Part shown: positions 12,936 to 50,054 of the stretch, in pieces
Numbering within the stretch: position 1 is the stretch's first letter
Layout: each line of letters begins with the position of its first letter
DNA from: Psammoneis japonica
Lineage: Eukaryota
DNA length: 64,000 nucleotides
NCBI GenBank assembly: GCA_008632985.1
Contig: QPGO01000032.1
Coordinates: 307,330 to 371,329 of the forward strand
Direction of reading: 5' to 3'
The notes under the pieces: model-generated
Seen by the model: the letters and a program-made list of their open reading frames with translations, nothing else
Databases searched by the model: none
What the model was told of the DNA's origin: nothing
Position numbers and translations under genes: made by a program

Positions 12936-14343
12936 ATGGCGACCGCCCCCGAAGTCACCACCGTACCCGCAGATGTTGCCGAAATGACCCTCAAGGATCA
13001 ACCCGAGACGATAGAGAAGGGTCTCGAAACACAAGTCAGCGACGCAGCTTCTGCTGCTTCATCGCCTCCCTCGTCGGAGAATACCGGTCCCAACTTTGGA
13101 AAAATTTCGTGGGACATTTGCGATCGTCTCCGCTGCGAATCGTGTGGTCACGCGGTATCGGCTCCCATCAAGCAATGCCGTTCCGGTCACGTGTTGTGCC
13201 TACTATGCTCCAACAAGGTTACCACCTGCCCCAACAAGGCGTGTGAAATTTCGCTCAAGGGAGACTTGTCCGTCAATACCAGTCTCGAGAAAATTGCAAA
13301 CGATGCCGGTGTCGTTTTGCCGTGTCGTTCCATACATTGTGATTGGCGTGTCCCGCTCAGGGATTTGGCGCGTCATGAAAAGTATTGCATGCTGATTCGC
13401 AAGGGTATTTTGAGTGCCAGTATTTATCCCGAAAAGGAAACAGAAGAATCGAAATTGGACCCCGATTTGATTGCCAAAGAGTCGATTCGTCAGGAATTAA
13501 ATTGCTCTCTTTGCAATCACGCCGCACCGGCACCCATTATGCAGTGTCGAAACGGACACGTACGTGCTATTATTGCCTGGGTAGGCTGGAAAAATTTGAA
13601 GACTCGTCGTGTCCGCTGTGCGAAGGACGGGATGATGCCGTGGTCCGCAATTTGCATCTCGAGGGCATGGCAAACGTGGCAGAAGTATGCGTGCCGTGTC
13701 GCAACAAGGGTTGTGACGTGACTGAAATTGCTCATAAGGACCTCAAGATCATTTGGAGGTTTGTGAACATCAACCCATCAAGTGTATTCATTGCAACATG
13801 AAAAACAGCGACCAAGTGGAAGTATCTTTTGAGAATTGGGATGCCATGTGGGAACACTACAAAGAGGAGCATTTACAGTCCTTTCCCGCCGTGTCGCTGG
13901 ATAAGTTGGTTGTGACATCAAGCAAAATTAAGTCGGTCATGAGCACCGAAAAGGGTCTAGGTTTCTTTTCGTGGAATCACTGCCTGGATCCAGCCACGGG
14001 ACAGGCCGTTCCCATATTCCCCGGGTTGCTGTATCACAAGCCACAGGATGCCTTTTACTTTTCGGTTCGCATCATGGGACCACTGGATTCCAACCAGTTT
14101 TACCAGTTGCGTGTCAAGCCCCATGATTCTGCTGAAGCCCCGCTCGCCGTGGAGGCTTGTCTGCCGCCCACGTCGTACCGCGTGGGATATTTGGACGAGG
14201 CTAGTTTGGCAACGGCGGCCAAATTGCTTCAAGCTGGACCTTGTCTGGTCCTTTCGAGACCCACTCTGGAACACATGTTGTCTGTGTCGTCAGACGGTGG
14301 TCTACTGTTTTCCGTTTGCCCAGTAAAAAGCGAAAGTGCATGA
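12936..14343 (+). CDS. SINA/SIAH-like E3 ubiquitin ligase with duplicated RING plus Zn-finger module; frameshifts near 13560 and 13750
   Basis: CESC...PIKQCRSGHVLCLLC...CP and CSLC...PIMQCRNGH...CPLC...RNLHLE, each followed by PC...C...H...C. Confidence 0.8.
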
Positions 14344-14800
14344 ATTACATAGTGCATTGTAGTAATTAGAGGCCGTGCTGTTTTCGGATAGAGTGGATAA
14401 ATAATACAGACAGCAGCGGTTTCTCTACTGAAGTTTACTACAGCTAGAGAGAAAACTGAATATCATGTTTAATAGTCTTGGTACTTGTCTCGTCTAGCGG
14501 AGGCCTCCCGTAAAAAGAAGGAAGGTTTGCGCCACAGAAATTTCTTACCTTACTTCTTTGCTGATTGTAATCTTGTGCCAAATCTACCTCCACGGAGCTG
14601 TTTGTAGAAAGAAAGGAACTAATCCCTATAGCTCATTCGGAGAGCTTCACACCGAGATCCTCTTGCCATAGCTGATGCTCAACAGAGACATACCATAGAG
14701 TGTTTAGCTAGAAATGAGCTAGAATCTACAGAGATACTGTCTAGACAGAAATGAACTTGAATCTACGTATGGCGCGGCCAACCTGTCGGGAAAAACAAAC

Positions 14801-16137
14801 TCAATCATGTTCATCTTCTGATGCATAATCGTTGTCACTCGCATTTCATATGTTTCACTTTGTTCACTCTCGTCGTCGTCATCATTTTCTTCTGATGCAC
14901 AATCGTTGTCACTCGCATTGACATAGGTCTCACTATGTTCACTCTCGTCGTCGTCATCATCTTCTGATTCAAAATCGTTGTCACTCGCATTGTCATCGGT
15001 CTCACTTTTTTCACTCTTGTCATCATCCATGCTCAACAAATCAGTCTCCATCTCTGACTCTGATGGCCACTCATACTGGTCCTCGGCCTCGGCGATAGCT
15101 TGATCCATTGTTTGAAAGTCATTCGTCAACCAGAAAGTTCCGTACACTCGGTTGGGAGCTTTACTTCCGACAAGAGAGAGTGCGGCATTTTCAATTTGCC
15201 CGGGAACCACAGTATGCACATACGCCAATCTACCATCAGGACAACACTCGCACGTGGTGACAGTGGGGTGTGGCGGTACCGTTCGTATGGTCTGATTGAA
15301 AGCCAGTCGACGACGCTTGAATTGACCATTTACGTACCTGGGTTTGTCATGAAGCAATTCAAGGCACGCCGGGCGAATCAGCTGCATAATAAGTTGAACT
15401 ACGAAAGCCCATGCCCAGTCGTACACTTCGTTATCCATTCGTGCCACACTTGCGCGATGGGACAGCCGACGAATGATGCGTTCACGGAGGAGGTCATCAT
15501 TGTCACCTAGTAACTCCGACGCGTGTTCTAAAGTCAATATTGGGTACGAACCATTATACCTCAACCCATTTGGTTCGGCAACAAACTCTCGCTCAAACAA
15601 GTCGTGGTGACAAAAATACCGTTTCGTCAATACTGGATACAAACCAGTGGCCTCCGCAAGTTCAACCGGAATCTCGTATGTCTTTTGAAAAGCAAGAACC
15701 ATATGTGCCTGTACAAGCGCTGCCAATACGTAGAGTGTGTCACCTCGAAACAGGAATCGGTGGTGGTTAAGTTCAACAGGGTGCTGTTGAAGATTGAGCA
15801 AACTAGGGCCTCGGTCGGAAAGAATCGAGTGGACCAGATCATTCCACCCAACCGCGCCAAGCTCGTCGACGAGTATGTTGAGTCCGCGTTTCTTCTCCCT
15901 GCGAATCGCTTTGATCGCCGTTCTCGCACAAGCACGATCGCGGTTGGACTGCAACCTGACATCCTCTCCAAGAATCTCCTTATTGTCAAGATGCTTCCAT
16001 GTCATGTCGTCGCCGACGATTTGACGAAGTGTTCTGCACGTCCGCTCACACCGAAGTAACGTCTTGGTGTCGCGGGCTGCAAGGATCAGTATCTTCCGGA
16101 TAAGTTCTACCGGGAGCGCTTCAAAGAGGCTTGACAT
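14801..16137 (-). CDS. F-box protein with H3-like and H4-like histone-fold segments and an acidic repeat tail
   Basis: F-box LFEALPVELIRKIL...RTCRTLRQIV...W; histone-like blocks described in findings. Stop is probably 14801 once one A is restored in the third tail repeat; the ORF track reads on to 14719. Confidence 0.75.
14803..15020 (-). repeat. Three coding tandem copies of ~72 bp (acidic SETxxNASDND repeat)
   Basis: aatcgttgtcactcgcatt recurs at ~14828, ~14901 and ~14973. Confidence 0.9.
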
Positions 16138-16500: not shown

Positions 16501-18159
16501 ATGGCGGAAGAAGAGCAGGCAGCACCCAAGGCACCGGTACGTGGTATGACATTGTATTTTGAGTGACATGGAGAAATAGAGTTGAAACGCTGGGCAACAG
16601 ATGTGGTTGTACCAACATGCCCATGGGCGAATGTGATAGTCATACCACGACACGTAGACTCCGGTACAAATTCTACGCGACAACCCGGACATATCTGCCC
16701 TTCATGACTGAAAAATGAGAAAGATACCGACCATGGGATTTTGAACGATCTTTCTGTTACTCATGACTTACAGTATGTATGTTTCCCCCATACTGCAGAC
16801 CTTTGATTGGCTCCCAGAGGGATGGAAGCGTTGGCGACGGCGAATACGACGCGATTGTCATGGGAACGGGTCTCAAGGAATGTGTGATCTCTGGTCTACT
16901 TAGTGTTCAGGGAAAGAAAATCCTCCAGGTGGACCGTAACTCGTACTATGGCGGTGATGGAGCCTCGCTTAACCTTACCAATCTCTTTGAAAAGTTTAAC
17001 GCGGGTCAGGTTCCCTCCAATCTGGGCCAGAACCGCGATTACAATGTGGATCTTATCCCCAAGTTTATCATGGCTTGCGGCAACCTCACCAAAATGTTGC
17101 TTCACACCAAGGTGACTCGTTACTTGGAGTTCAAGTCGGTTGCCGGGTCCTACGTGTACAACGACGAAAAGATTCTCAAGGTTCCTGCGACACCCGAGGA
17201 AGCCCTTCGGTCGCCACTCATGGGACTTTTCGAAAAGCGCCGTTTCCGTAAGTTTCTGCTCTACATTGACCAGTACGAGGAGAACAAACCCGAGACGCAC
17301 GAGGGGCGTGACTTGACTAGAATGACCATGCGTGAGCTCTACACCGAGTTTGGTCTTGTGGATGCGACTCACCAATTCATTTCCCACGCCATGTGCCTCG
17401 AGTTGGACGAAACCCACATGGACAAACCCGCTCTCCCCACGGTGAAGAATCTTCAGACGTATTGCTACTCGCTCTCGAGGTACGGTACCTCGCCGTACAT
17501 TTACCCGGTGTACGGTTTGGGTGGACTGCCCGAGGGCTTTTCTCGCATTTGCGCGATTCACGGTGGTACCTTTATGCTCAACCAGGACGTGGACGAGATC
17601 CTGTTTAACGAGTCGGGTGCTGCCTATGGCATCAAGGCTGGCAACCAAATGGCCAAGGCCAACATGGTGATTGGTGATCCCTCCTACTTCCCCAAGGAGA
17701 AGGTCCGCCCCACTGGACTTGTGGTGAGGTGCATTTGCATCCTCAACCACCCCATTCCAAACACCAACAACAGCGAGAGTGTCCAAATCGTCATTCCCGG
17801 TCCTCAGGTGGGACGTGTCAATGATGTCTTTGTTGCTGCATGGGCCACACGCTCCAAGTGTCGGCTCCCGGCATTTACATTGCCATTGTTTCGACTCGTG
17901 TCGAAAGGAACAGCCCGACCAGGACGTGGCGCCTGGTCTCAAGCTGTTGGGACCCATTTTGCAGCGCTTTACCAGTGTCCAAACCACGTACGAGCCAGTC
18001 GAGGACGGTGGCAAGGACAAGTGCTACATTTCCAAGTCGTTTGACGCGACCTCGCACTTTGAGGCGGACTGTGACGACTTTTTGTCCCTGTACAAGCGGG
18101 TTACCGGAACGGACCTTGACATGAGCATTAGTGCCGATTCGGTCGAGGGAGACTACTAG
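16501..18159 (+). CDS. GDI: Rab GDP-dissociation inhibitor; exon 1 16501-16536, intron 16537-16798; apparent small deletions near 16830, 17832 and 17905
   Basis: EYDAIVMGTGLKEC, DRNSYYGG, RDYNVDLIPKF, SPYIYPVYGLGGLPEGFSR, GGTFMLN, SFDATSHFE. Confidence 0.97.
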
Positions 18160-37093: not shown

Positions 37094-40000
37094 ATGGGAC
37101 GAACCAAGAATGCCAATCCCAAACGATCTCTTCATGTGACAGTGACGGAACGACGGAATCACGAGGATCATGAAACAACTGCAGCCACGATTGCTCAAGC
37201 GGAGTCCTTGGAACCACGAAGAAAGAAGCAAGTCACGTTTGCACGAGAGCTTGAGTCAACTATTGACATACCATTGATAGAGAATACAGAAGCAACTATC
37301 GTTGAAGAGGATCCGACAGTGCAGCCAGAAGTTACAGTTCATTCCCATTCCCATTCAGAGTGGACCTTGGAAATCCAGTCTGACGAATCGGCGCGAGAAG
37401 AATCAAACCGTGCTTCACCATTTTTGTTGAGGCAATATGATCTGAGCAACACGTCAGTCAGCTTGGGAAGCGAGGAAAACGGCGTTAACTTGTTTGCGAT
37501 AAGAACGGCGGAGGGTGCAGCAACCCTGGTGAAGCATTGTGAAGGTCGATTTGGCAATAAAGAGAAAGACTGGCGTTCTGTGGGAGTTGCTGTCGAGGAT
37601 GGGACAATGTCATTGATTTGCACATTTACGAATACAGTTTTGCAAGTGTCGCTATGGTTGAATCAATTGGCGTTTGAAGTGTCCTGTCCGTCCAATCTCC
37701 CAATTACAACGAGACGAAACCAATGGTCCAAGAAACAGATTCCCTGCCGAAACTTGCGGTTGGCTCTTGGCAGTCTCTTTCCACAGTCTGTGATTGCCGA
37801 TGTAGCCAAACCCCAGTCATCATCTTCTTCTGAAAGTATTACAGCCAAAATGATTTACGACGTGACGGATAATGTGCAACTCTTGGCACAAGACGAGAAC
37901 CGAAAACCGTTCCGTGACATTCCCGGCCTTGTGCCCACCTTGCGTCCTTATCAAGAAGAGGCGGTCGAATGGATGTTGAAGCGGGAAAAGCAGCAGTTGT
38001 ACACGGCAAGAGGGAGTCCAATACCCATCAAGAGTGATGAGAAGGAAGGACGAGAATGGGAAATGGCTTGGGTTGTCTTGGTCCAAGAGACGTCAGAAAC
38101 GAATAGTGAAAGCCAGTGTCAAAGACAAGGCAATATCGTAGTGCCATTGTATGAATGGAACAAACAACAAGACTCGGAGTACATCTTTTACAGTCCCTTT
38201 GCGGGGTGGCTTGCAAAAAGTGTGCAAGAGGCCCACGCCTACTCAATTCAATCTGTTTATCCCGATTGGGATCCGTCCAAGCATTCGAATCCCTACGTGT
38301 CCGGAGGTATTCTAGCGGATTCCATGGGACTAGGAAAAACAGTCGAGGTATGTTCACTACGTTTAGTTTCTGTTGTTTCGTGCCGGTACTGATCCATGGT
38401 GCTAACGCTTCCTCGTGTTTTGCGGCTTTGTCCAGGTGTTGGCTTGCATACTCGCAAATCCGTTGAAAACGAACGACAAAGGCAAAAGCTCTGTCGTTCG
38501 CAATTTGGACTTCTCCACAGATTCCGATCAAGAGGAAAAGAAACAAGACGATAATACTTTAGAAATCGTAAAGGGCAACGTGCCGCCGGCAAAGAGGCAG
38601 CGCACTGGGGAGGCGCAATCGGACGAAACGAGCCACGAAGAAAATGACAGTGGTGTAGGAAACTTTGATTATTGTCACGAATGTGAAAAGGTAAAGGGGG
38701 GCTTTTTGTTTTGCGCAGAATGCCCGCGAGCATTTCACCACGGTTGCACGCCCCAGGGCGACGACCCTGTCAACGAGGATTGGGTTTGCCACGTTTGCAA
38801 AGAAGAACAAGCTACTAGTATTCATGTGGATGGAACGGTGTCGGTTGATACTATTGCAGAGGCGTACGACCAGTATGAAGAAGCTGATGACTTTGATGCC
38901 GGTACTAAAATCCTTAGCATCACTCATGAGATTGTCACGACTCTTGAAGATCATGAGTTTGGGACTTGGTTTCGGCGTCCTGTCGACTGCGACGAGGTTC
39001 CGGGCTACGCTGAAGCAATTTCTAACCCAATGGACCTGGGAACAATAGCTTCTGATATAAGCAGCGGAGAATACGGCAATCGTTATAGCTCTTGGAACGA
39101 AATGGTGGTCTCCATTTTGACTGATCTTGAGTTGGTTTGGCATAACTGCTTTGTCTTCTATGACGAAGGATCTTATCGCTGCAAGATGGCAAAAGTGCTA
39201 CGTCAACAAAGCCAGAGAATGCAGAAGGACAGTCTTGTTTCTCTGTTGGCTGAAGATGTTGTTCGTCGAGTCCAGGGCGCCGCGGATGATTTTGAGAAGA
39301 TGCGAATCAGTGGTATCGAAGAACTGTCGACTCTTCAACGGCAAGCAACGGTGAAGAAGAAGGTTTCAGAGAACTACTCTGACTACGCCTCAATTGGAGA
39401 ATGCCTATGCGGCCATTCTGGGAAATCAAAAAAGACACTCTCCATGGTGGTGTGCCGCTCGTGTTTTGGTCCAATGCATGGGGTGTGCGCTGGATTCACG
39501 TCGGAAAAGCAGCTTCGCGAAGAGACGCAAGTGGGTACGATGAAGAATCAATATACTCACGAAGAATTTTATTGCCGAATGTGCAATGAAGATCATTGTC
39601 CTTGTTGCGCTTTTTCGAGAGATGGAGAGAGCTTGATCCAGAGTCGCGCAACACTTATTGTTGCTCCGCCGTCCATTATTAGCCAGTGGGAACGTGAGAT
39701 CAAAAGGCATACCGCAGTTCCGATGATACCAGACGCCTCCGCTGGTGCATCTTTAGCAAGTACTGGGTTGGTGTCCGGGGAGCGTGATTCAGAATCTTTG
39801 CGTCCTCTGAATGTTCTTGTTTATCCGGGTGTTAGAGAGTTGTGTAACAATGCCGGGCATAAGCCGTCCGTGAATTCGTCTGAAGATGACCGCCCCAAAA
39901 TCCATTTGATTCATCCGCGCGTCCTCGCCGATGCAGATATTGTGCTGATGCCATTTCAGGCGTTGATGGGAGACCTGACGCATTCTGCTGACAACCCATT

Positions 40001-43000
40001 TGTTGATTCACCAGGTAACAGGGGTTCTTCACAGTTGAATCTAAGAAAACGAAAAAGATTTCGGGTTGTCCCCTCGCCTCTAACCAGTATCAATTGGTGG
40101 AGAATATGCCTGGATGAGGCACAGCGTGTCGAAACTCCGACTGCGGCATCAGCGCAGATGGCGTTGAAGCTCCAAACAACGCATCGATGGTGTGTTTCAG
40201 GAACACCGGTCGGTAAAGGTAAACTGGAAGACCTGTACGGTCTAGTTCTATTTCTCGGGTTGACGCCTTTTTCTAGCAGCAGTTTCTATTCAAAATGCCT
40301 GCAGTCCTCGCATCAAGGGGTTATGGCAAGGGTGAAGCATCTGTTGCAGACAGTGTTTTGGCGATCTACAAAGTCATGCCCAAGGGTAAAGCTGGAAATG
40401 GGCGTTCCAGAGCAGGTTGAAAAGAAAGTATTCCTTCGGTTCTCGTCAATTGAGAGACATTTTTACGAAAGGCAACTGGAAGAGACCTTGTCTATTGCAA
40501 GCACAGTGGCAGGAATGCGAGAAAGCAATCAGAAAGCTACACAGATAGAATTGCTTGCTGCTCATTTACATCGACTACGTGCCGCATGTTGTCATCCTCA
40601 AGTTGGTTCTAGAGGTGTCGGACGCCAAAAGAAGAGTCGCAAATCTCAATCCGACAGTTGCGACAATGGATATGGGTCGGTGAATATAAATTCTGGGGTG
40701 CTTACAATGGACCAGATTCTTGATCGATTGATTGATGATGCAAAGACAAAATGTGAGGAAGCCCAGAGACTTGCCGTAATGCATAAAAATGCGTTGGCTT
40801 GCCTGTCGAGACTCAAAGTGGATGCGCGAGGCTTCGGCATTTCAGTTGACGAAAGCGACAAAGAGCTTTTGACTCGAAGCTGTGAAGCATATCAGGAATC
40901 TTTGGATCTTATGGACACCAATGCTGAACCTAGCGCTGTCGTAGGTGAATCCATGATCACAGGCTGCACAGGCTTTCGTAGATCTCGAGAAATAGTTCGA
41001 GACGGAAAGGCCATTCTTGATTGGCAGCTGATATCACACGATGCGTGTGGTGAGCAGACCGAGAGCCATGGTGGTCTGAGGGAGGTGTGGGCGCGAATAG
41101 ATTTTGAAGGCCCTTCCAAAAAGCTAGTTCAGATAAGGATACAACCGATCCGGCATTTGCCAGCAGCCCTGTACGAAGAGCGTGGGACGGGCTTTCATGT
41201 TCTTCGACCGAAAGACTGCATATTGCAGGTTTCCAGCGCTTCTGTTGGTGGCATGTTTGTGGATGTTGTGCGTTTCACGTTGCCGGCATCTGAGCAGAAC
41301 GATACTGCTGATACCTGGTTGACTTTCGGGGGATTTCGTACTAATAAGTCTAAAAGTTGGCGCTTGCTGGTGAAGAACTACCACGGAACGGATCTGATGG
41401 AGTTCCCCCCGCAGGCAACTGCTCGCTCGTTGTACGTAGGAGTGGAAGTGGAACTGATGGAGGCCTCTATTGCAATGGACACCCTTCCGCGTCTTCACGT
41501 GCTACATAATTTGTCGTTGTCATTGTCATCTCTGCTGGAGCAAGGAAAGCAAACACCTGAGAGCGCATCTGATGCTGATGGGTCCCTGTCGACAGACGAA
41601 TCAGGAGCTTCTGCTGATGTAAAAACAAAAATGCTACGCATGAAGGCCGAAGCAGAGAAAATTGAGTCGTTGTATATGGATGCAGCCAGAACTGTTCATG
41701 GTGAGAGTCAACGGCAGTTGCAGATTGCGATGGAACAGCGCAGGTCGCTCGAGCGCGACTTGCTTCGTGTTAAACTCCTAGCCCGAAAGTCTGCGAAGAA
41801 TCCCAATGCCACAGATAGTTACTGGGACGATGCCTGGTGGGATGACCTGTTATCCGCATGCCACTTACATGCCTCTATATCAGAGCGACTTGCACTATGC
41901 GATAAGGTTGCAGGTGATCTGAATGACTTTTACGCGGATACTGTAGCTGGAATAGCAAGTAAGAAGCGATTTCCTCAGTTCCATAATGCCGGTGGGCTGA
42001 AGGTCGCCCTTTCCTTATATATTGATGAGGTGGTGACTCAGAAGCATTCCCCGTGTATCGAGTCTGTAACAAAGTTGAGTGCAAATCCAGAGGAAGACGA
42101 AATAGTTGAAAACAGCCACTGCAAAGTGTGTAGAGAAGACTGGTGAGATCCTTGTTCGCGACCCATATCGAAACATGCGAAAGTCGTCTTTTTATTCCTA
42201 TGTCGTTTCTGACACGATACGCTGGATTCTCCTCCTACGTAGGAATCAAAAAGGGCCCAAATGCAGGCATTGCAAGTTGGAGGATGCGCTGGAGCAGTTA
42301 GAGAACGACCCGGTGTTGCTCTGTGTCTTGAATTCACTTTCGAAATGGACAAGGGAATCGAAAACAACAGGTGCTCTGCGATCCGCAATGCTTGCGGCTA
42401 AGGTCGACGAACGAGCCAAACTGTTTTTCAAGGTTGTCAAAGCAGCAGAGAAAGAAAGATTAGCGGCACGAGCTGCATGGAGTTGTCATTTTGATCTACT
42501 CAGCGATGTTGACGAGCTAATCCAGTGCAAGCAAACCATGAGACTTGCCCATGAAGGAGAGGATTTAAGCGACTTGACCGAGGAAGAACAGAATTTCATA
42601 GTGGCGCCTTGTGACATTGCCGCAAAATGCATGGACCATGAAGCGAGGAATGCAATGGCTTTGGGAGATTTGCGAAGGTGCAGAAATACTCTTCGGTACC
42701 TTAAGAATCAGAATGCAGAGCGGCGCGAAGAAAGAAGGGTCCGTAAACAGCACCGAGGTGGACGTTCAGACGCAGCTGAGGATAGGAAAGCAAGCTGTGT
42801 CGTCTGCCTAAACCCACTTGACGGAGATAGGGCCGTTCTTGGTTGTGGGCATTCATTTCACTACTCTCCGTGCTTGGAGAATATAATGAAACGTGGTTTC
42901 AGTCGTCAGACTATAACTTGCCCATTGCGATGTTCATTGAAAACGAAGCGTGAAGATGTGCTAATTGCAACTGACAAGAGAAAAGACGATGGTAGCCGGT

Positions 43001-43629
43001 CCAGACGTGAAGTGAAAGGGAGTTGGGGTACAAAAGTTACTCGCCTTGTAAGCGACGTAATGGATGTATCTGACCGGGGCGAGAAAGGCATTGTTTTCTC
43101 TCAGTGGGAGGATATGCTGGAAGTTGTTGAGCAAGCTCTAGCGCAGAATAACGTCCACTACGTTCGAGCGACGAGTCTCGTCCACATTGGCGAAAGTCTC
43201 AAATCCTTTCGTTCGTCGGCGAACTCGGTTCTTCTTCTTAATGTGAAGAATGCAGGTGAAGGATTGACACTTGTTGAAGCGACTCATGTCTTCATGGTGG
43301 AACCCTTGCTGAACTGTGGTCTCGACAGTCAAGGTGAGTGAATGCTCGGAGTTGTGTCTCTTAGTCTCTTGGACGTCGTCTTACTCTCCTGTGTCCTTTT
43401 TACATTAGCTATCAATCGAATTCACCGAATTGGACAGGCGTGCAAAACGTATGTGCATCGCTACGTAATTGAAGATACAGTCGAAGTGAAGATCGACAAA
43501 ATGCGGTCAGAAAAACAAGACGATCAAATTGAAGATTTGATCAACAATTCTAAAGTAAAACAAGGTGTACGTGGCGGCGGCATTGATGGTGGATTGAGTC
43601 AGGCAGAACTGCACCAGCTATTGCATTAA
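37094..43629 (+). CDS. SHPRH: SHPRH-like SNF2 helicase / RING E3 ligase with PHD, bromodomain and PHD insert; introns 38348-38435, 42143-42242, 43334-43408
   Basis: LRPYQEEAVEWM, GGILADSMGLGKTVE, QWEREI, WWRICLDEAQ, RWCVSGTP, LRAACCHPQ, RING CVVC..CGHSF..C, FSQW, GLTLVEATHV, QAINRIHRIGQ. All three introns are GT-AG and in frame. Confidence 0.92.
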
Positions 43630-45340: not shown

Positions 45341-46719
45341 TTTTCTCAGAGACTTTTTGTGCCGATCTTAGTCAGTCGCGTCTCTACTGTTGCTTCAAGG
45401 AAGGATCTATCTTTAACAGCGATTGGAGGGTATCTTATCCAACTACTGTCTATACCCTGGATTCAATGCATTGCCTGTGAAAGTTGAAAGTGAAAAGGTA
45501 AGGTGTAAATACCGGTGCCGATACGGTAAGGTTGTTGGTGTTGGCAGTTAGTTGAAGCCGAATGCCGGTCGAACGAGTCGAGAGGTGGCGCGCAGAGTGC
45601 ATGCATTTTGTTGTTTTTTTTGGTTTTTTGTTGCTTTTTGCAGTTTTTCGTTGTTGTGAAAATCGTGTTTGTTCCCCCGTTTGTTTGGCAAGACAAAATG
45701 CAACAGAGCGCCACAGCCGGCCCACCTTGGTTCAGGGGTGGGTGCTGCTGGCTGGTGCCTTGGCAGGTGAGAGATGTTGAGAGGTGCAAGTTGCTGTCAG
45801 AGCAGTGGGAACAGAGCTGCTCTCTCCTCTTTGCCCCCCCCCCCCCCCCCNTGCTCTTTCTTTTTTCATGCTCGCTGCTCTGCTCGGAGAGATCTTCAAC
45901 AGCCAACCCTCTGCTGGTGCAAGTGAAGTGGCAAAAACAAAGGGGAAAAGCTGTCTGGCTGCACTGTGTGAGCCCAGGGGCAAGGCAGCAGCACCCTGGA
46001 TTGCCGGCATTGTGAAGTCACAGCAGCAAGAGATGAGAACCCGCTCACAGCGTGCCACACATGAGAAAACAACAATCCCATGGCAAGTGTGCATGGCACA
46101 ACAAAAAAGGGGGCAGCCAGTTTTAACTTGGCCCTTAAATTTATTTTTCAATGCTGTGCCACCTCCCTGGGCAGCACTTTTTGGCTTTGCCTTCTTGTGG
46201 CACACTGTTTGAAAGCTGCCTGGTGTGATTTTTTGTGTCATGAGGAAGAAGCAGCAGTCTCCACCACTGAGCACAAAAAAAACAGCCTCTGGAAAAGAGC
46301 AGGGTGTGGGTGCAAATGTTCAGCTGTGGTGCCAATTTTGTTTGGAGGGCAGGATTGGAGCTGTGTGAGTGCAGCAGCAGGGTGAGAAAGTTGAGAAACT
46401 TCAGGGCAAGAAATGTGAAGTGAACAAACAGGGGCACCCCCTGTTTCACTTGTTGCACCCACGCTCCAACCAGCACACTGCCTGCCAACCACATCTGGGA
46501 CACCAACAATCTGGGTGTCAAACACCTCCCATCAAGATTTTTTGAAATGAAGCCAGGCAAATTCTTCATTCAATCCAAGACTTTGCCGATTTGTCCAATC
46601 TGCATTCATGAAATGTTCGACAACAAACGTCTGCATTCCTGAAGTTGACATTTTCTCTGCCGCATGCACAAAATAATGACTCTCTGCAAATCATCACTTT
46701 TTTCTTTCTTGCTTTGCAC

Positions 46720-49700
46720 CATGACCACTCCCTCTCCCTCTCCTTCTCCTTTGGTCAATGTCAAGCTCTTGGCTGAAGTTCTCCACCCTGCCGACCTTCC
46801 TGACGTGCCTGCTGTTGCCCTCACAACTGATGCCATTCGTGACATTGTTCTCAAGATGCTCAAGCATCATGATCAGCATGTCTCTCCACTTCTTTTCACC
46901 CTTGGCTCTGTGATGCTTTCTCAAACCAAGAAACGCTCCTGTCCCCATCAGAGCCAGTGGGCTTCCCACTTTCATGTTGCTCTCCATCCCGTGGTTCCGG
47001 AAGGGTCTGCCTTTGACTTCCTCTCCTTCTGCAATCAGGCGCTTTCCTTTCTGCTCCAAAAGTGGCACCTTCATCCCATGTCCCACTTCGCTGTGTTCTG
47101 CTCCATCAGTTCCTTCTCTAACTTCCCACACCCAGACCATTCGCTGGCCCCGTTGTGGACAACCCATGGGTGTGGCATTGCACCTTCATGACACCCACTT
47201 GCAACTTCTTTGATGAGAAGGCCCATGGCATCCTCGCTGGCCCATCCCCTGCCCTCTGTGGTGCCTCTCGGTGCACCTGCAAGTTCCTTTTGTTGCATCT
47301 CCACTCCTTCCTTGTTGGGAAAATTTCCAGTGCTGCTGCCAACCCCATTCTTCAATCCTTTCAAGACTGTCCTGCCTTCCTTGATCTCATTGGCATTGGA
47401 CCTTCCCAGTGTCCCGCCAGCTCTTCTCAGCTCCGTCACTGTTCCCTTTGAGTCTTCTGTGTCTCTGCTGCTTCCAATGCGGTTTGGAACACTCTCCTCA
47501 ATGTCGCCAACCCACCCAACTCTCCGCCTGCTCCATTTTCCATTTTGGGCACTTCTGCTGCCATCACCCCCTTTCCTGATTCCGCCAACTTCTCTGCTGC
47601 TTACAATGGCCTGTCAGAGCTCATCTCCTGCCAAAGCAACATGGTCGTGGTTGTCTCTGATTGGCTCAAGCTTCCTTTGACTCAGCCCAGCATCACCTGT
47701 CTCCTCTCTGCTGCAAACCTTCAGTCTCTCATTCCTGTGTTCTCTGCCCATGATGCCCTTCCAATCAAGTGCAAGCTCCTCCTCTTCCCATCTCCTTGCG
47801 CCATCGCTCTTGCAGATTCCAACCTGCACAACTGTTCCGGCTTCCCCTCCAACCTCCTTGCCTCTGAAATGGACACTTCCCTTGCTGCTGATGCAGCCTC
47901 CCCATCCTGTGCCTCTGCTGCTCATCAGCCACGCCTGCCCCCTCTTGTGACTCTTTTTCCTGTCAGGCTCTTGAGCTGCTTGCTCAAGATTGGCAGATCC
48001 CTGAGCCCCAGGATCTGCCCCCTGCTGAGCCTCTTCCATGCTTCCATCCACAAGCTTGCTCTCCAAATGCTCAGCCTCCTCCCTCCAAACGTCCCCACCC
48101 TTCCTCCGACACTTCTGCACTTCCAACTGATGTTCCTGATGCAATCATGCAGACTGAGGCTGATGACTCTGTCACTCCTCAGCAGCCCCAGTGCGAGATG
48201 GAACTCTTGGACACTCCTCTTTACAAAGCCGCTGCTTGGGCTGCATCCCTGACCTCGCTTCTCTCAGCGACCTCATCGCCTCGCAGAACCCACCAAACCC
48301 CTTTTGTTCCTGGTCTTTTTCATCTGCAGATGCTTCCTCACTGCCTGCTGCTGTGCGTGGCCATCTTCACCAGGAGCATCCTCGCCTGTCTCTTTCCCAA
48401 GTGTCTGCTGCATTCTTTGATGCTGCTGGCTTGCATGTCTGCAGACATTGCAATCACAGCCAATGTGCCTGCTTCTCTTCCATGCACCTCCACAATCACT
48501 TGCAGAATGAGCACTTTGCTCCCTGCTCCACCCTTGATGCCAACATCATCCTTTCATCTCTCCCTGACATTGGTGACTGGCACTCTGCACTCCAATGGCT
48601 TCACTCTTTCACACCTGTGCCTCTGCCTTTCCAAGCTTCCTGCTGCCACAAGCTCTCTCTTTCTGCCAAGAAAGAGCTCTGCTCTGCTCTTCACCATGTG
48701 GTGCGCTGGATCCTTGCTTCCTCCCAACCCCTGTCTGATCCCACTCATCTCATTCCTTTGTGGCAGCGTGACTCTGAGCCTTTTTGGAAGCTGCTGTTGC
48801 TCTTTGAAGCCCTTGTCCTTGCCCCCATCCCTTGGTGCTCTAAATTTGCTCCCACTGTCACCTTGCACCTGGCTCTCTTCCATTGTGGCTCCATTCACCA
48901 GCTCCATCAAGAAGCCTGTTCCCCATGCATCTCGCCTTTCTGTCTCTCCTCCCAACTTCTCCGCCTCCCCCTGCTGTTTTTCCACCCAAGTTTGTGCTGA
49001 TGAAGACAACTTCCACTCCGCCTGCTCCAAGCTCACCTCCGCACTTCCAGCAGCCGCTGTTGCCCCCAAGTGCCTCCTCAACATCCTCAAGCTCTGTCCA
49101 TCCCGCCTGCATCCCTCCAACATTCCCACTGCTCCCTCAACTTGATCTGCTTCCTCCCTTCACAATGAGCCCATTGAGCTCTCCGTCAATGCTCTCCTTT
49201 CTGCTCTTTCCAAGTGCAAACCTGGCACCGCTGCTGGCATCTTTGCAGACTCCACTGATCTCTTCAAATCTTGTGTGCTCCACTCTGCCAGAACCCCACA
49301 GGAGACTCCCAGCATCCTCATTTGCCCTCCTTCCGTGAGCTCATCCTTCTTCTCCTTCATGGCTCCATCCCCTCCTCCATCCATCCCTTGCTTGCCTCGA
49401 ATTACTTTGTCGCCCTCCACAAGGATGCCACCGATCTGGAGAAACTCCATCCCATCGGTGTTGGAACTGCCCTCCGACATGTCACCGGCTTGGTCATCAT
49501 GACCCTGTTTGGCTCTGCTTTCACAGAATGCCCCCTTCCTGATGGTCAATTTGGCACTGGTGTTAAAGGCGGCCTTGACTGTCTCATCCATTCTGCCCAT
49601 GCCAACATTGGGCTCCATCTTTCTGTGGCAGATCCAGCCAAAGTCCTCCTTCTTTTGGATTTGGTCAACATGTTCAACGAAGCTTCCTGTGATGCCTGTC

Positions 49701-49993
49701 ACCACCCACTTTCCTCCATTGATGCCTTCCACCCACTTCTTCCCTTCTTTGATCTTGTGTGCCAAAACTCCAATGCCTGCTGGTGTTGTCGGCCAGACTC
49801 CACCTGGGATTCCTTTGTTCAAGAAGAAGGCTTTGCCCAAGGCTGCCCCCTTGGTCCTGTCTTTGTGAGCCTTGTCCTCTCTCTTGTCCTTTGCCTGATT
49901 AACCAAGAACTTGGTGAGTGCATTCCAGGCTGCTCTCCCACCTCTGTGGGCTCCTTCATCAATGACGCCCATGCTTTTCTTCCCCATCCATGA
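46720..49993 (+). mobile_element. Decayed non-LTR retrotransposon (CRE/RLE-like), truncated just after the RT catalytic motif; 5' end approximate
   Basis: C2H2-like CRHC...HLHNHLQNEH; RT motifs FVALHKD, LHPIGVGTALRH, QFGTGVKGG, LDLVNMFN, EEGFAQGCPLGP, FIND (degenerate [YF]xDD). Confidence 0.85.
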
Positions 49994-50054
49994 CTTGTGA
50001 GAAGCATGAGATGCGCTTCACTTTTGTAGACTGTCTTGTTTCTTCAGGCATTGA

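Follow-up and report, generated by a model that had tools for sequence, protein, structure and literature searches.

An F-box protein family of eukaryotes with a predicted single-chain pair of H3-like and H4-like histone folds

The window studied here is a stretch of 64,000 nucleotides from Psammoneis japonica (contig QPGO01000032.1 of assembly GCA_008632985.1), in which a minus-strand open reading frame (ORF) encodes the protein P0001. Along a single chain, P0001 presents an F-box, an H3-like and then an H4-like predicted histone fold (together called the doublet), a short conserved C-terminal element and an acidic tail (Table 1), and in joining an F-box to an H3-H4-like doublet it combines two modules of familiar type into a new domain architecture. 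Our preferred reading, held with moderate confidence, is that P0001 represents a eukaryotic F-box family whose substrate-binding domain would be a single-chain pair descended from H3 and H4, closed by a cap made of a Trp and a helix and followed by the acidic tail. The neighbours of the F-box gene (a Rab GDI gene at 16779-18044 with E 4e-154, a SINA-type RING gene, Vps52 and an SHPRH-like SNF2 helicase) mark the window as eukaryotic nuclear DNA, and tblastn found no paralogue of P0001 elsewhere in it.

A first-pass annotation, made from the DNA letters, had placed at 15169-16137 an F-box protein fused to an H3-like and then an H4-like fold. That span lies inside the ORF but covers only amino acids (aa) 1-323, the gene extending through the C-terminal element and the acidic tail. 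The proposed order of folds in a single chain after the F-box is borne out by Pfam, by profile searches and by two AlphaFold2 (AF2) models, and all the peptide stretches quoted at the time are found in the ORF translation, with offsets of 1-3 codons: TAIKAIRREKKRGLNIL corresponds to aa 73-89 and starts at 15921, not 15924; FLFRGDTLYVLAALVQAHMVLAFQKT begins at aa 128; YPVLTKRYF is aa 167-175; RIIRRLSHRASVARMDNEVYD begins at aa 220, at position 15480 rather than 15489; HTVVPGQIENAA corresponds to aa 308-319; and the CECC residues of the insert are aa 296-299.

Table 1. Features of the P0001 gene (positions are those of the window; aa, amino acids of P0001)
Feature	Positions	Strand	Basis
ORF encoding P0001, 472 aa + stop	14719..16137	-	uninterrupted open frame
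F-box-like domain, aa 6-52	15982..16122	-	Pfam PF12937, E 2.4e-8
H3-like half, aa 65-184	15586..15945	-	AF2 helices, profile matches to Cnp1/H3
Variable linker between the halves, aa 185-214	15496..15585	-	pLDDT about 50
H4-like half, aa 215-333	15139..15495	-	phmmer, profile and structural matches to H4
Insert in H4-like L2, aa 264-303	15229..15348	-	conserved P288-P289, C-x-C-C
Conserved C-terminal element, aa 334-356	15070..15138	-	W336, helix 344-352, Y355
Polyacidic tail, aa 357-431	14845..15069	-	net charge
72-bp (24-codon) tandem repeat, 2.9 copies, encoding the tail	14811..15021	-	Tandem Repeats Finder
Probable one-base gap in the window sequence	14843..14847	-	run contigs carry an extra base

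A word-indexed protein search returned 11 relatives of P0001, and an exhaustive search of 1.84 billion cluster representatives returned 170 with an E-value (E) of 1e-3 or less, 93 at E ≤ 1e-10 and 26 at E ≤ 1e-30. Clustered at 50% identity, the family thus numbers 170 clusters or more. The full-length relatives share 42-45% identity with P0001 (44% for the top match), and none of the family clusters looked up has an informative name. Three alignments were used as profiles: A1 with 12 sequences, A2 with 68 longer members and A4 with 73 sequences. The F-box-like family PF12937 is found at E ≤ 0.1 in 59 of 68 members. Fifteen long members (486-741 aa) showed no further domain, an F-box being found in 12, nothing in two, and only a sub-threshold UVR motif in the last one. 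Short family matches (107-250 aa) were considered as free-standing halves of the doublet, a possibility that was rejected: 12 of the 14 printed begin with Met, and because several of them, for example P0094 and P0117, start within the doublet, they are read as fragments. Given these F-box counts, the lack of additional domains and the fragmentary nature of the short matches, the succession of F-box, doublet and acidic tail is a constant architecture. Pattern scans of contigs confirmed no further member either among viral contigs of IMG/VR (A1 pattern and tblastn, 46 pattern matches) or among metagenome contigs (A3 pattern, 91 matches), which is weak evidence because such scans demand near-exact short motifs; the ESM Atlas returned only generic F-box clusters and no model of P0001. 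A long subfamily (P0007, P0008 and P0010-P0012, 646-741 aa) carries, N-terminal to the F-box, extensions of 140-300 residues with an abundance of Asn, Asp and Glu and a shared, conserved D-W-G-E-Y-Y-[VI]-x-D-D motif. The alphaN-like segment of this subfamily, I-R-[RK]-Y-Q-K, looks nearer to H3 than that of P0001, and the inter-half linker of its members (P0007, P0009-P0011) contains a separate Cys-rich stretch.

The F-box of P0001 reaches 34.1 bits with PF12937, above the gathering cut-off of 24.3, and 14.6 bits with PF00646, under its cut-off of 20.5. The other weak Pfam rows of the protein are low-complexity matches of the acidic tail, and aa 60-345 match no Pfam family even at E ≤ 10. A three-helix F-box fold is predicted by AF2, on which F-box proteins from Skp1 complexes superpose with Z-scores (Z) of 8.0-8.5, of which 8.0-8.2 over aa 2-76 in the search of PDB representatives: aa 2-74 align with FBXO3 from its Skp1 complex (9kbf_C, Z 8.2, 71 residues aligned, root-mean-square deviation (rmsd) 2.5), 5vzt_B scores Z 8.0, and 1fs1 superposes over 41 of 41 residues with an rmsd of 1.0-1.2. 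Across the family, W47 is kept in 65 of the 68 members, and the L-P motif and hydrophobic positions of the F-box are also conserved; family profiles match F-box proteins of Skp1-cullin-F-box (SCF) ligases with sequence E-values of 2.1e-4 to 2.4e-4.

For the region following the F-box, the likeness to histones emerges at the level of profiles. Used alone against the PDB sequences, P0001 gave with phmmer nine matches, all of them histone H4 (E 0.5-2.4), in which aa 208-269 align without gaps on H4 21-82. The A1 profile matches H4 at E 2.4e-4, F-box proteins at 0.009 and H3/Cnp1 at 0.02, together with one match of the acidic tail to MAK16 and, on the H4-like half, the archaeal histone HMk at E 0.039. 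With A2, F-box proteins come at 2.4e-4, Cnp1 at 3.7e-4, H3 at 5.8e-4 and H4 at 0.018, the H3 match placing profile positions 75-177 on H3 47-132, from alphaN (I-R-x-x-Q-K) to alpha3. The A4 profile has 27 matches at E ≤ 0.01, namely 18 F-box proteins and 9 H3/CENP-A. At this threshold the three profiles match only F-box proteins, H3/CENP-A and H4, plus the single acidic MAK16 match, and the matches are ordered along the chain as F-box, H3/CENP-A and H4; neither H2A, H2B, TAF and NF-Y nor the sequences of Spt3, SUPT3H and SOS are among the matches listed for A1, A2 and A4. Comparing the H3-like and the H4-like halves of the family with hhalign revealed no similarity (probability 0.7%), as is also expected between real H3 and H4. 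Homology over the alphaN and the histone fold of H3 is present at profile level only. As far as sequences can tell, the similarity to histones is real, remote and specific, the first half resembling H3 and the second one H4, and we regard a true descent of the doublet from H3 and H4 as probable.

Structure prediction points in the same direction. AF2 was run on aa 1-360 with a 68-sequence alignment and no templates, giving a model with a mean predicted local distance difference test (pLDDT) of 89.6 and a predicted template-modelling score (pTM) of 0.89, and the structural aligner searched 48,161 PDB representatives. The best superposition of the doublet (aa 88-329) was obtained with HMk from Methanopyrus kandleri (1f1e; Z 10.4, 150 of 151 residues, rmsd 2.9), followed by a fused H2A-H2B construct (8uqe_B, Z 10.3), the Melbournevirus doublets (Z 10.2 and 9.6), Spt3/SUPT3H of the SAGA complex (6t9k_C and 7kts_I, Z 9.4 and 9.1), the bacterial pseudo-dimers 1wwi and 1r4v (Z 8.8 and 6.7) and the histone domain of SOS (1q9c, Z 8.2), the next unrelated folds coming at about Z 4. 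Re-alignment of the 103 candidates of Foldseek retained 28 chains with Z ≥ 8, of which the top 21 (Z 8.7-10.4) are histone pairs, single-chain or linked; the remaining seven are F-box or related proteins superposing on aa 1-84. Taken separately, the halves align with CENP-A (7on1_e on aa 69-185; Z 5.1, 96 of 97 residues, rmsd 2.3) and with H4 (8ham_B on aa 204-335; Z 3.8, 79 of 91 residues, 20% identity). The model of P0009, which shares only 20-21% identity with P0001, has a pLDDT of 78 overall and above 85 over most of its folded part; it superposes on HMk 1f1e with Z 11.8 (148 of 151 residues), on a Melbournevirus doublet with Z 10.7 and on H4 with Z 4.0, and its alignments with H3 chains show 20-22% identity over 91-99 residues. 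In the viral library, the top Foldseek match of P0001 is annotated 'Fused protein of histone H3 and histone H4' from Medusavirus stheno (E 6.2e-3). The intramolecular handshake that the first-pass annotation had proposed to look for with AlphaFold is therefore predicted in P0001 as well as in the distant P0009, and a histone-fold handshake is very likely in the family, given that each doublet is covered almost completely, that unrelated folds score far lower and that the sequence matches agree.

Several results weigh against our preferred reading. Alone, P0001 is not significant against histones at the E-values given above, and P0008 and P0010, each run singly through phmmer on the PDB sequences, had no hit with E ≤ 1. 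The two halves never fall below 1e-3 within one profile, H4 staying at 0.018 in A2 and not coming within 0.01 in A4. The Pfam family Histone (PF00125) is found in 1 of the 68 members only (E 1.8e-4), does not match P0001 at E ≤ 10, and reaches 19.5 bits with P0077, under its cut-off of 26.4. Concerning the structures, Foldseek found nothing at E ≤ 1e-3 in the PDB and viral libraries, a search which for the PDB is weakened by the multi-domain query; Z-scores of 10-12 lie under about 13, where according to the aligner's note helical proteins can match by common arrangement; both handshake structures are predictions; and, as a single chain, H2B fits the second half with its C-terminal helix (Z 3.8-4.0) as well as H4 does (3.8-4.0). 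An alternative is that the F-box is joined to a generic histone-fold doublet, for example a duplicated fold of the TAF, Spt3 or NF-Y type, which would resemble H3 and H4 by convergence or through features common to histone folds in general. This explanation, which we consider unlikely, accommodates the modest sequence E-values (2e-4 to 2e-2), the lack of significance of the single sequences P0001, P0008 and P0010 and the equal suitability of H2B for the second half, as well as the match of one family member to the TAF9 family TFIID-31kDa (E 0.0031) and the scores of Spt3 (Z 9.4) and SOS (Z 8.2), which nearly equal those of the viral H3/H4-type doublets. It agrees less well with the profiles, among whose listed matches HMk is the sole other histone-fold protein, with an H3 alignment of about 100 residues that takes in the H3-specific alphaN, with the fact that the first half always matches H3 and the second always H4, and with the identity between P0009 and H3 chains.

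Each half is described here with the histone nomenclature, L1 and L2 being the loops between helices. In the AF2 model the H3-like half consists of an alphaN-like helix (aa 65-84), alpha1 (88-113), L1, a strand (126-130), alpha2 (132-164) and alpha3 (172-184). An F-R-G-D motif opens its alpha2, and R131 and D133 within this motif are invariant in all 68 members; by the A2 profile alignment, we take R131 to be the equivalent of H3 Arg83. The linker between the halves (alignment columns 187-214) varies from 16 to 57 aa across the 68 members. The H4-like half comprises alpha1 (215-228), L1, alpha2 (236-263), the insert, a strand (304-310), alpha3 (312-326) and a V-Y-G sequence (331-333), with P312 invariant in 68 of 68 members. 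Its insert, in which AF2 predicts short strands, is 27-60 aa long (median 40.5). The four residues C258, C296, C299 and H308 (15214-15366) are all present in 19 of the 68 members and all missing in another 19, and this all-or-none pattern suggests that one subfamily may have a zinc site holding the insert in place. The C-terminal element is predicted with high confidence (pLDDT 91-97); W336 is found in 65 and Y355, which ends its helix, in all 68 members. Beyond it, the very acidic tail announced by the first-pass annotation is indeed there, with a net charge of -30 over aa 361-472, and tails with a net charge of -10 or below are present in 64 of the 68 members.

The doublet departs from histones in several respects. 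In P0001 it has a net charge of +5 and an isoelectric point (pI) of 8.9, and over the 68 members its charge has a median of -1.5 and ranges from -15 to +15, with a median pI of 6.7. Conservation, expressed as mean top-residue frequency, is highest in alpha1 (0.46), L1 (0.62) and alpha3 (0.49) of the H4-like half, the alpha1-L1 region being the most conserved segment of the family. At the low end come the inter-half linker (0.17), the H3-like L1 (0.21), the insert (0.26) and the H3-like alpha3 (0.28). In the gapless phmmer alignment, R223, R224, R228 and K/R233 stand opposite H4 Arg35, Arg36, Arg40 and Arg45 (conventional numbering), and they are found in 53, 45, 48 and 58 of the 68 members, respectively. 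In the alignments the basic residues of H3 L2 and H4 L2 are replaced in P0001 by Y-P and V-H, and the F-box occupies the place of the histone N-terminal tail. Judged by these alignments, one histone-type basic patch survives in an otherwise neutral module. In nucleosomes, the alpha3 of H3 forms the H3-H3' four-helix bundle; because the H3-like alpha3 is poorly conserved, tetramer formation has probably not been kept. Co-folding two copies of aa 60-358 gave a score of 0.00, in a run in which the alignment was not used and the fold of the protein itself was uncertain, so that it speaks neither for nor against an H3-H3'-like tetramer. Since the doublets of the family as a whole carry little net charge, nucleosome-like wrapping of DNA is unlikely, and the weakly conserved H3-like alpha3 and the insert point the same way.

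By analogy with known F-box proteins, P0001 is most likely a substrate receptor of an SCF ubiquitin ligase which would use the H3-H4-derived doublet and the acidic tail as its recognition module. Its F-box would dock on Skp1, and the alphaN-like helix that directly follows could serve as a rigid linker orienting the doublet, because it lies within aa 1-84, which superpose on the F-box-plus-linker region of known receptors. The doublet would then be a platform for protein recognition that does not wrap DNA, most likely working, by analogy, as an interaction module like the pairs of Spt3 and SOS. The basic patch formed by the H4-type arginines and R131 of the H3-like L1 may bind an acidic or phosphorylated ligand or degron, nucleic acid, or the tail of the protein itself, and the tail may capture basic clients, free histones being the most obvious candidates, or mask the basic patch. 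The variable linker, the L1 and alpha3 of the H3-like half and the insert would confer differing specificities on paralogues, and the variable loops together with the size of the family suit a picture in which specificities have diversified, as they have in other F-box families that expanded. Should histones or histone chaperones prove to be the clients, this would open a testable route to the control of histone supply in these organisms. A bolder version of this scheme, which we find doubtful, is that a lineage of cellular eukaryotes re-fused H3 and H4 behind an F-box and that the resulting expanded family of SCF receptors presents a counterfeit H3-H4 dimer. If true, this counterfeit would recruit the usual binders of H3-H4 (H2A-H2B, or chaperones of the Asf1, CAF-1 or NASP kind) or, through the tail, surplus histones, so that ubiquitylation would control histone supply or chromatin assembly, and the family would be a living exception to the rule that core histones are not fused in the eukaryotes of today. 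The first-pass annotation had likewise proposed an SCF receptor whose H3-H4 mimic would engage histone chaperones, histones or chromatin. The neutral doublet, the poorly conserved H3-like alpha3, the insert of 27-60 residues and the extra C-terminal helix argue against so close a mimic of H3-H4.

A few F-box proteins, such as yeast Ctf13 and Rcy1, bind Skp1 outside a cullin ligase, and P0001 could be another one, acting as a histone chaperone, a decoy or a scaffold that buffers or escorts histones or chaperones. The widespread acidic tail is typical of histone-binding proteins, and the top single profile match, the centromeric H3 Cnp1 (E 3.7e-4), would suit such a role, although its margin over H3 is negligible. 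What makes this role improbable is the F-box itself, canonical and conserved in its L-P motif, hydrophobic positions and W47: most F-box proteins act in SCF ligases, and a family of at least 170 clusters resembles the usual expansion of substrate receptors.

Still less is to be said for a doublet that has remained histone-like and would stand in for an H3-H4 dimer, or attach to DNA as half a tetrasome, thereby tethering Skp1 or the SCF ligase to chromatin. The conservation of residues aligned with the DNA-contacting arginines of H4 alpha1-L1, the invariant R131 and the mildly basic doublet of P0001 are in its favour, but across the family the doublet is neutral, and even acidic in some members, its H3-like alpha3 is poorly conserved, the basic residues of both L2 loops are replaced, the H4-like L2 carries the insert, and the long acidic tail would repel DNA. 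We consider this very unlikely, and the substrate receptor with a histone-derived recognition module remains our preferred reading.

The 3' end of the gene requires a correction. The tandem repeat encoding the tail (86% matches and 4% indels between copies according to Tandem Repeats Finder) is, in its third copy, read in the wrong frame in the window, so that the last 41 codons of the ORF (14719-14844) are non-acidic; the alternative frame of the other repeats (ORF 14835..15026) yields the same non-acidic peptide. All three run contigs that cross 14843..14847 have one base more than the window: one X1 contig, at a depth of 40.4 out of 73.3, has it after 14843, and a second X1 contig (32.9 out of 73.3) and X2 have it after 14846. 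These run contigs probably come from the sample behind the assembly and are not independent of it. With either extra base, the acidic repeat runs 14 codons further to a TGA at 14803-14801, for a protein of about 445 aa. An assembly frameshift is therefore probably what created the final 41 codons of the 472-codon ORF, and the two positions of the extra base indicate a consensus error at a site where two alleles differ. Over 14542-14900, the contigs of X1 come in pairs, each contig having a depth of about 31-42 where the total is about 73; the members of a pair differ by a few substitutions, at 14572, 14602, 14605, 14628, 14819 and 14870, and look like the two haplotypes of a heterozygous diploid. 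A hydrophobic C-terminal motif apparently common to P0001, P0009 and P0010 was rejected, because the end of the ORF in P0001 is a frameshift product. That the ORF is a chance frame or a decaying pseudogene is hardly credible: the exact sequence of P0001 is not found in a collection of 15 billion proteins and its 3' end is frameshifted in the window, but the frame is open over 472 codons with the identity to full-length relatives given above, all four invariant columns of the 68-sequence alignment are kept, and the run contigs do not have the frameshift.

Some observations concern the remainder of the window. The SINA/SIAH-type RING E3 gene (12936-14343, plus strand) adjoins the F-box gene tail to tail; its Sina_RING match (E 4e-11) lies in ORF 12936-13721, and ORF 13798-14343, for which Pfam gave no match, may be its second exon. 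The adjacency of these two ubiquitin-ligase genes may be a coincidence. At 37094-43341 on the plus strand, three successive ORFs with SNF2-related, SHPRH helical and Helicase_C domains are probably a single gene for an SHPRH-like SNF2/RING helicase split by short introns or frameshifts. The composition of 46001-50000 is anomalous, with a GC content of 0.51-0.54, a GC skew of -0.25 to -0.35 and an AT skew of -0.19 to -0.28, and the ORFs of this segment have low-complexity translations rich in Ser, Leu and Pro and no Pfam match; ORF 45732-46241 contains one N (X in the translation).

Fused core-histone folds are known from giant viruses, archaea and bacteria, and whether they are relics or intermediate stages in the evolution of the nucleosome is a matter of discussion. 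The P0001 family brings together H3-type and H4-type folds in one chain of cellular eukaryotes, in at least 170 clusters, and would add a new class of substrate-binding domain to the F-box proteins as well as a natural single-chain H3-H4-like scaffold for structural work. Because Pfam annotates only the F-box, its members are probably filed in existing genomes as 'F-box protein' or 'hypothetical'. The architecture had not been recognised as a described one by the first-pass annotation and, among the titles and abstract openings returned by a literature search, no F-box protein containing a histone fold is described either; the nearest subjects in that material are SCF ligases degrading CENP-A and TAF12b recruiting an F-box protein, and the available part of PMC11222145 does not mention the F-box. 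Present-day eukaryotes are, as a rule, without fused histones according to PMC10919886. The first-pass annotation described fused doublets as chiefly a matter of giant viruses and some archaea, a statement that agrees with this paper and leaves out the eukaryotic pairs of Spt3 and SOS which are matched structurally here. With a structure and a function that are so far predicted, the family should interest specialists of chromatin evolution and of ubiquitin.

Comparison with known systems helps to situate P0001. HMk, the best structural match, is a DNA-binding archaeal doublet made of two archaeal-type folds, and it has neither alphaN, insert, F-box nor tail. The Marseilleviridae doublets (Melbournevirus 7n8n and 9cvt) are single-chain histone pairs that superpose on aa 84-360 (Z 9.6-10.2) and form nucleosome-like particles, as stated in PMC8357426. 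They carry neither an F-box nor a polyacidic tail. The viral H3/H4-type doublet has H4 first and H3 second, and this H4+H3 doublet appears exclusive to Marseilleviridae according to the preprint of Grau-Bove (10.1101/2021.11.30.470311), whereas the order in the P0001 family is H3 then H4. The same order as in P0001 is found in the fused protein of Medusavirus stheno (BFVD A0A7S8BDF4), a single chain with an H3-type and then an H4-type fold, which Foldseek aligned with a probability of 1.00 over 208 columns at 15% identity, its E-value of 6.2e-3 being weak. This protein is viral, 263 aa long and devoid of an F-box; its name is given as annotated and its role in chromatin is assumed. Spt3/SUPT3H and SOS are single-chain histone-fold pairs of cellular eukaryotes which serve as interaction modules outside the nucleosome, with TBP as partner for Spt3 and with the membrane and autoinhibition for SOS, and they have no F-box. 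Finally, the F-box proteins of SCF ligases (the FBXW, FBXL and FBXO groups, with beta-TrCP, Skp2, FBXO3 and FBXO31) share with P0001 an N-terminal F-box, a helical linker and a C-terminal recognition domain; where they have WD40, LRR or other known recognition domains, the P0001 family has its histone-fold doublet.

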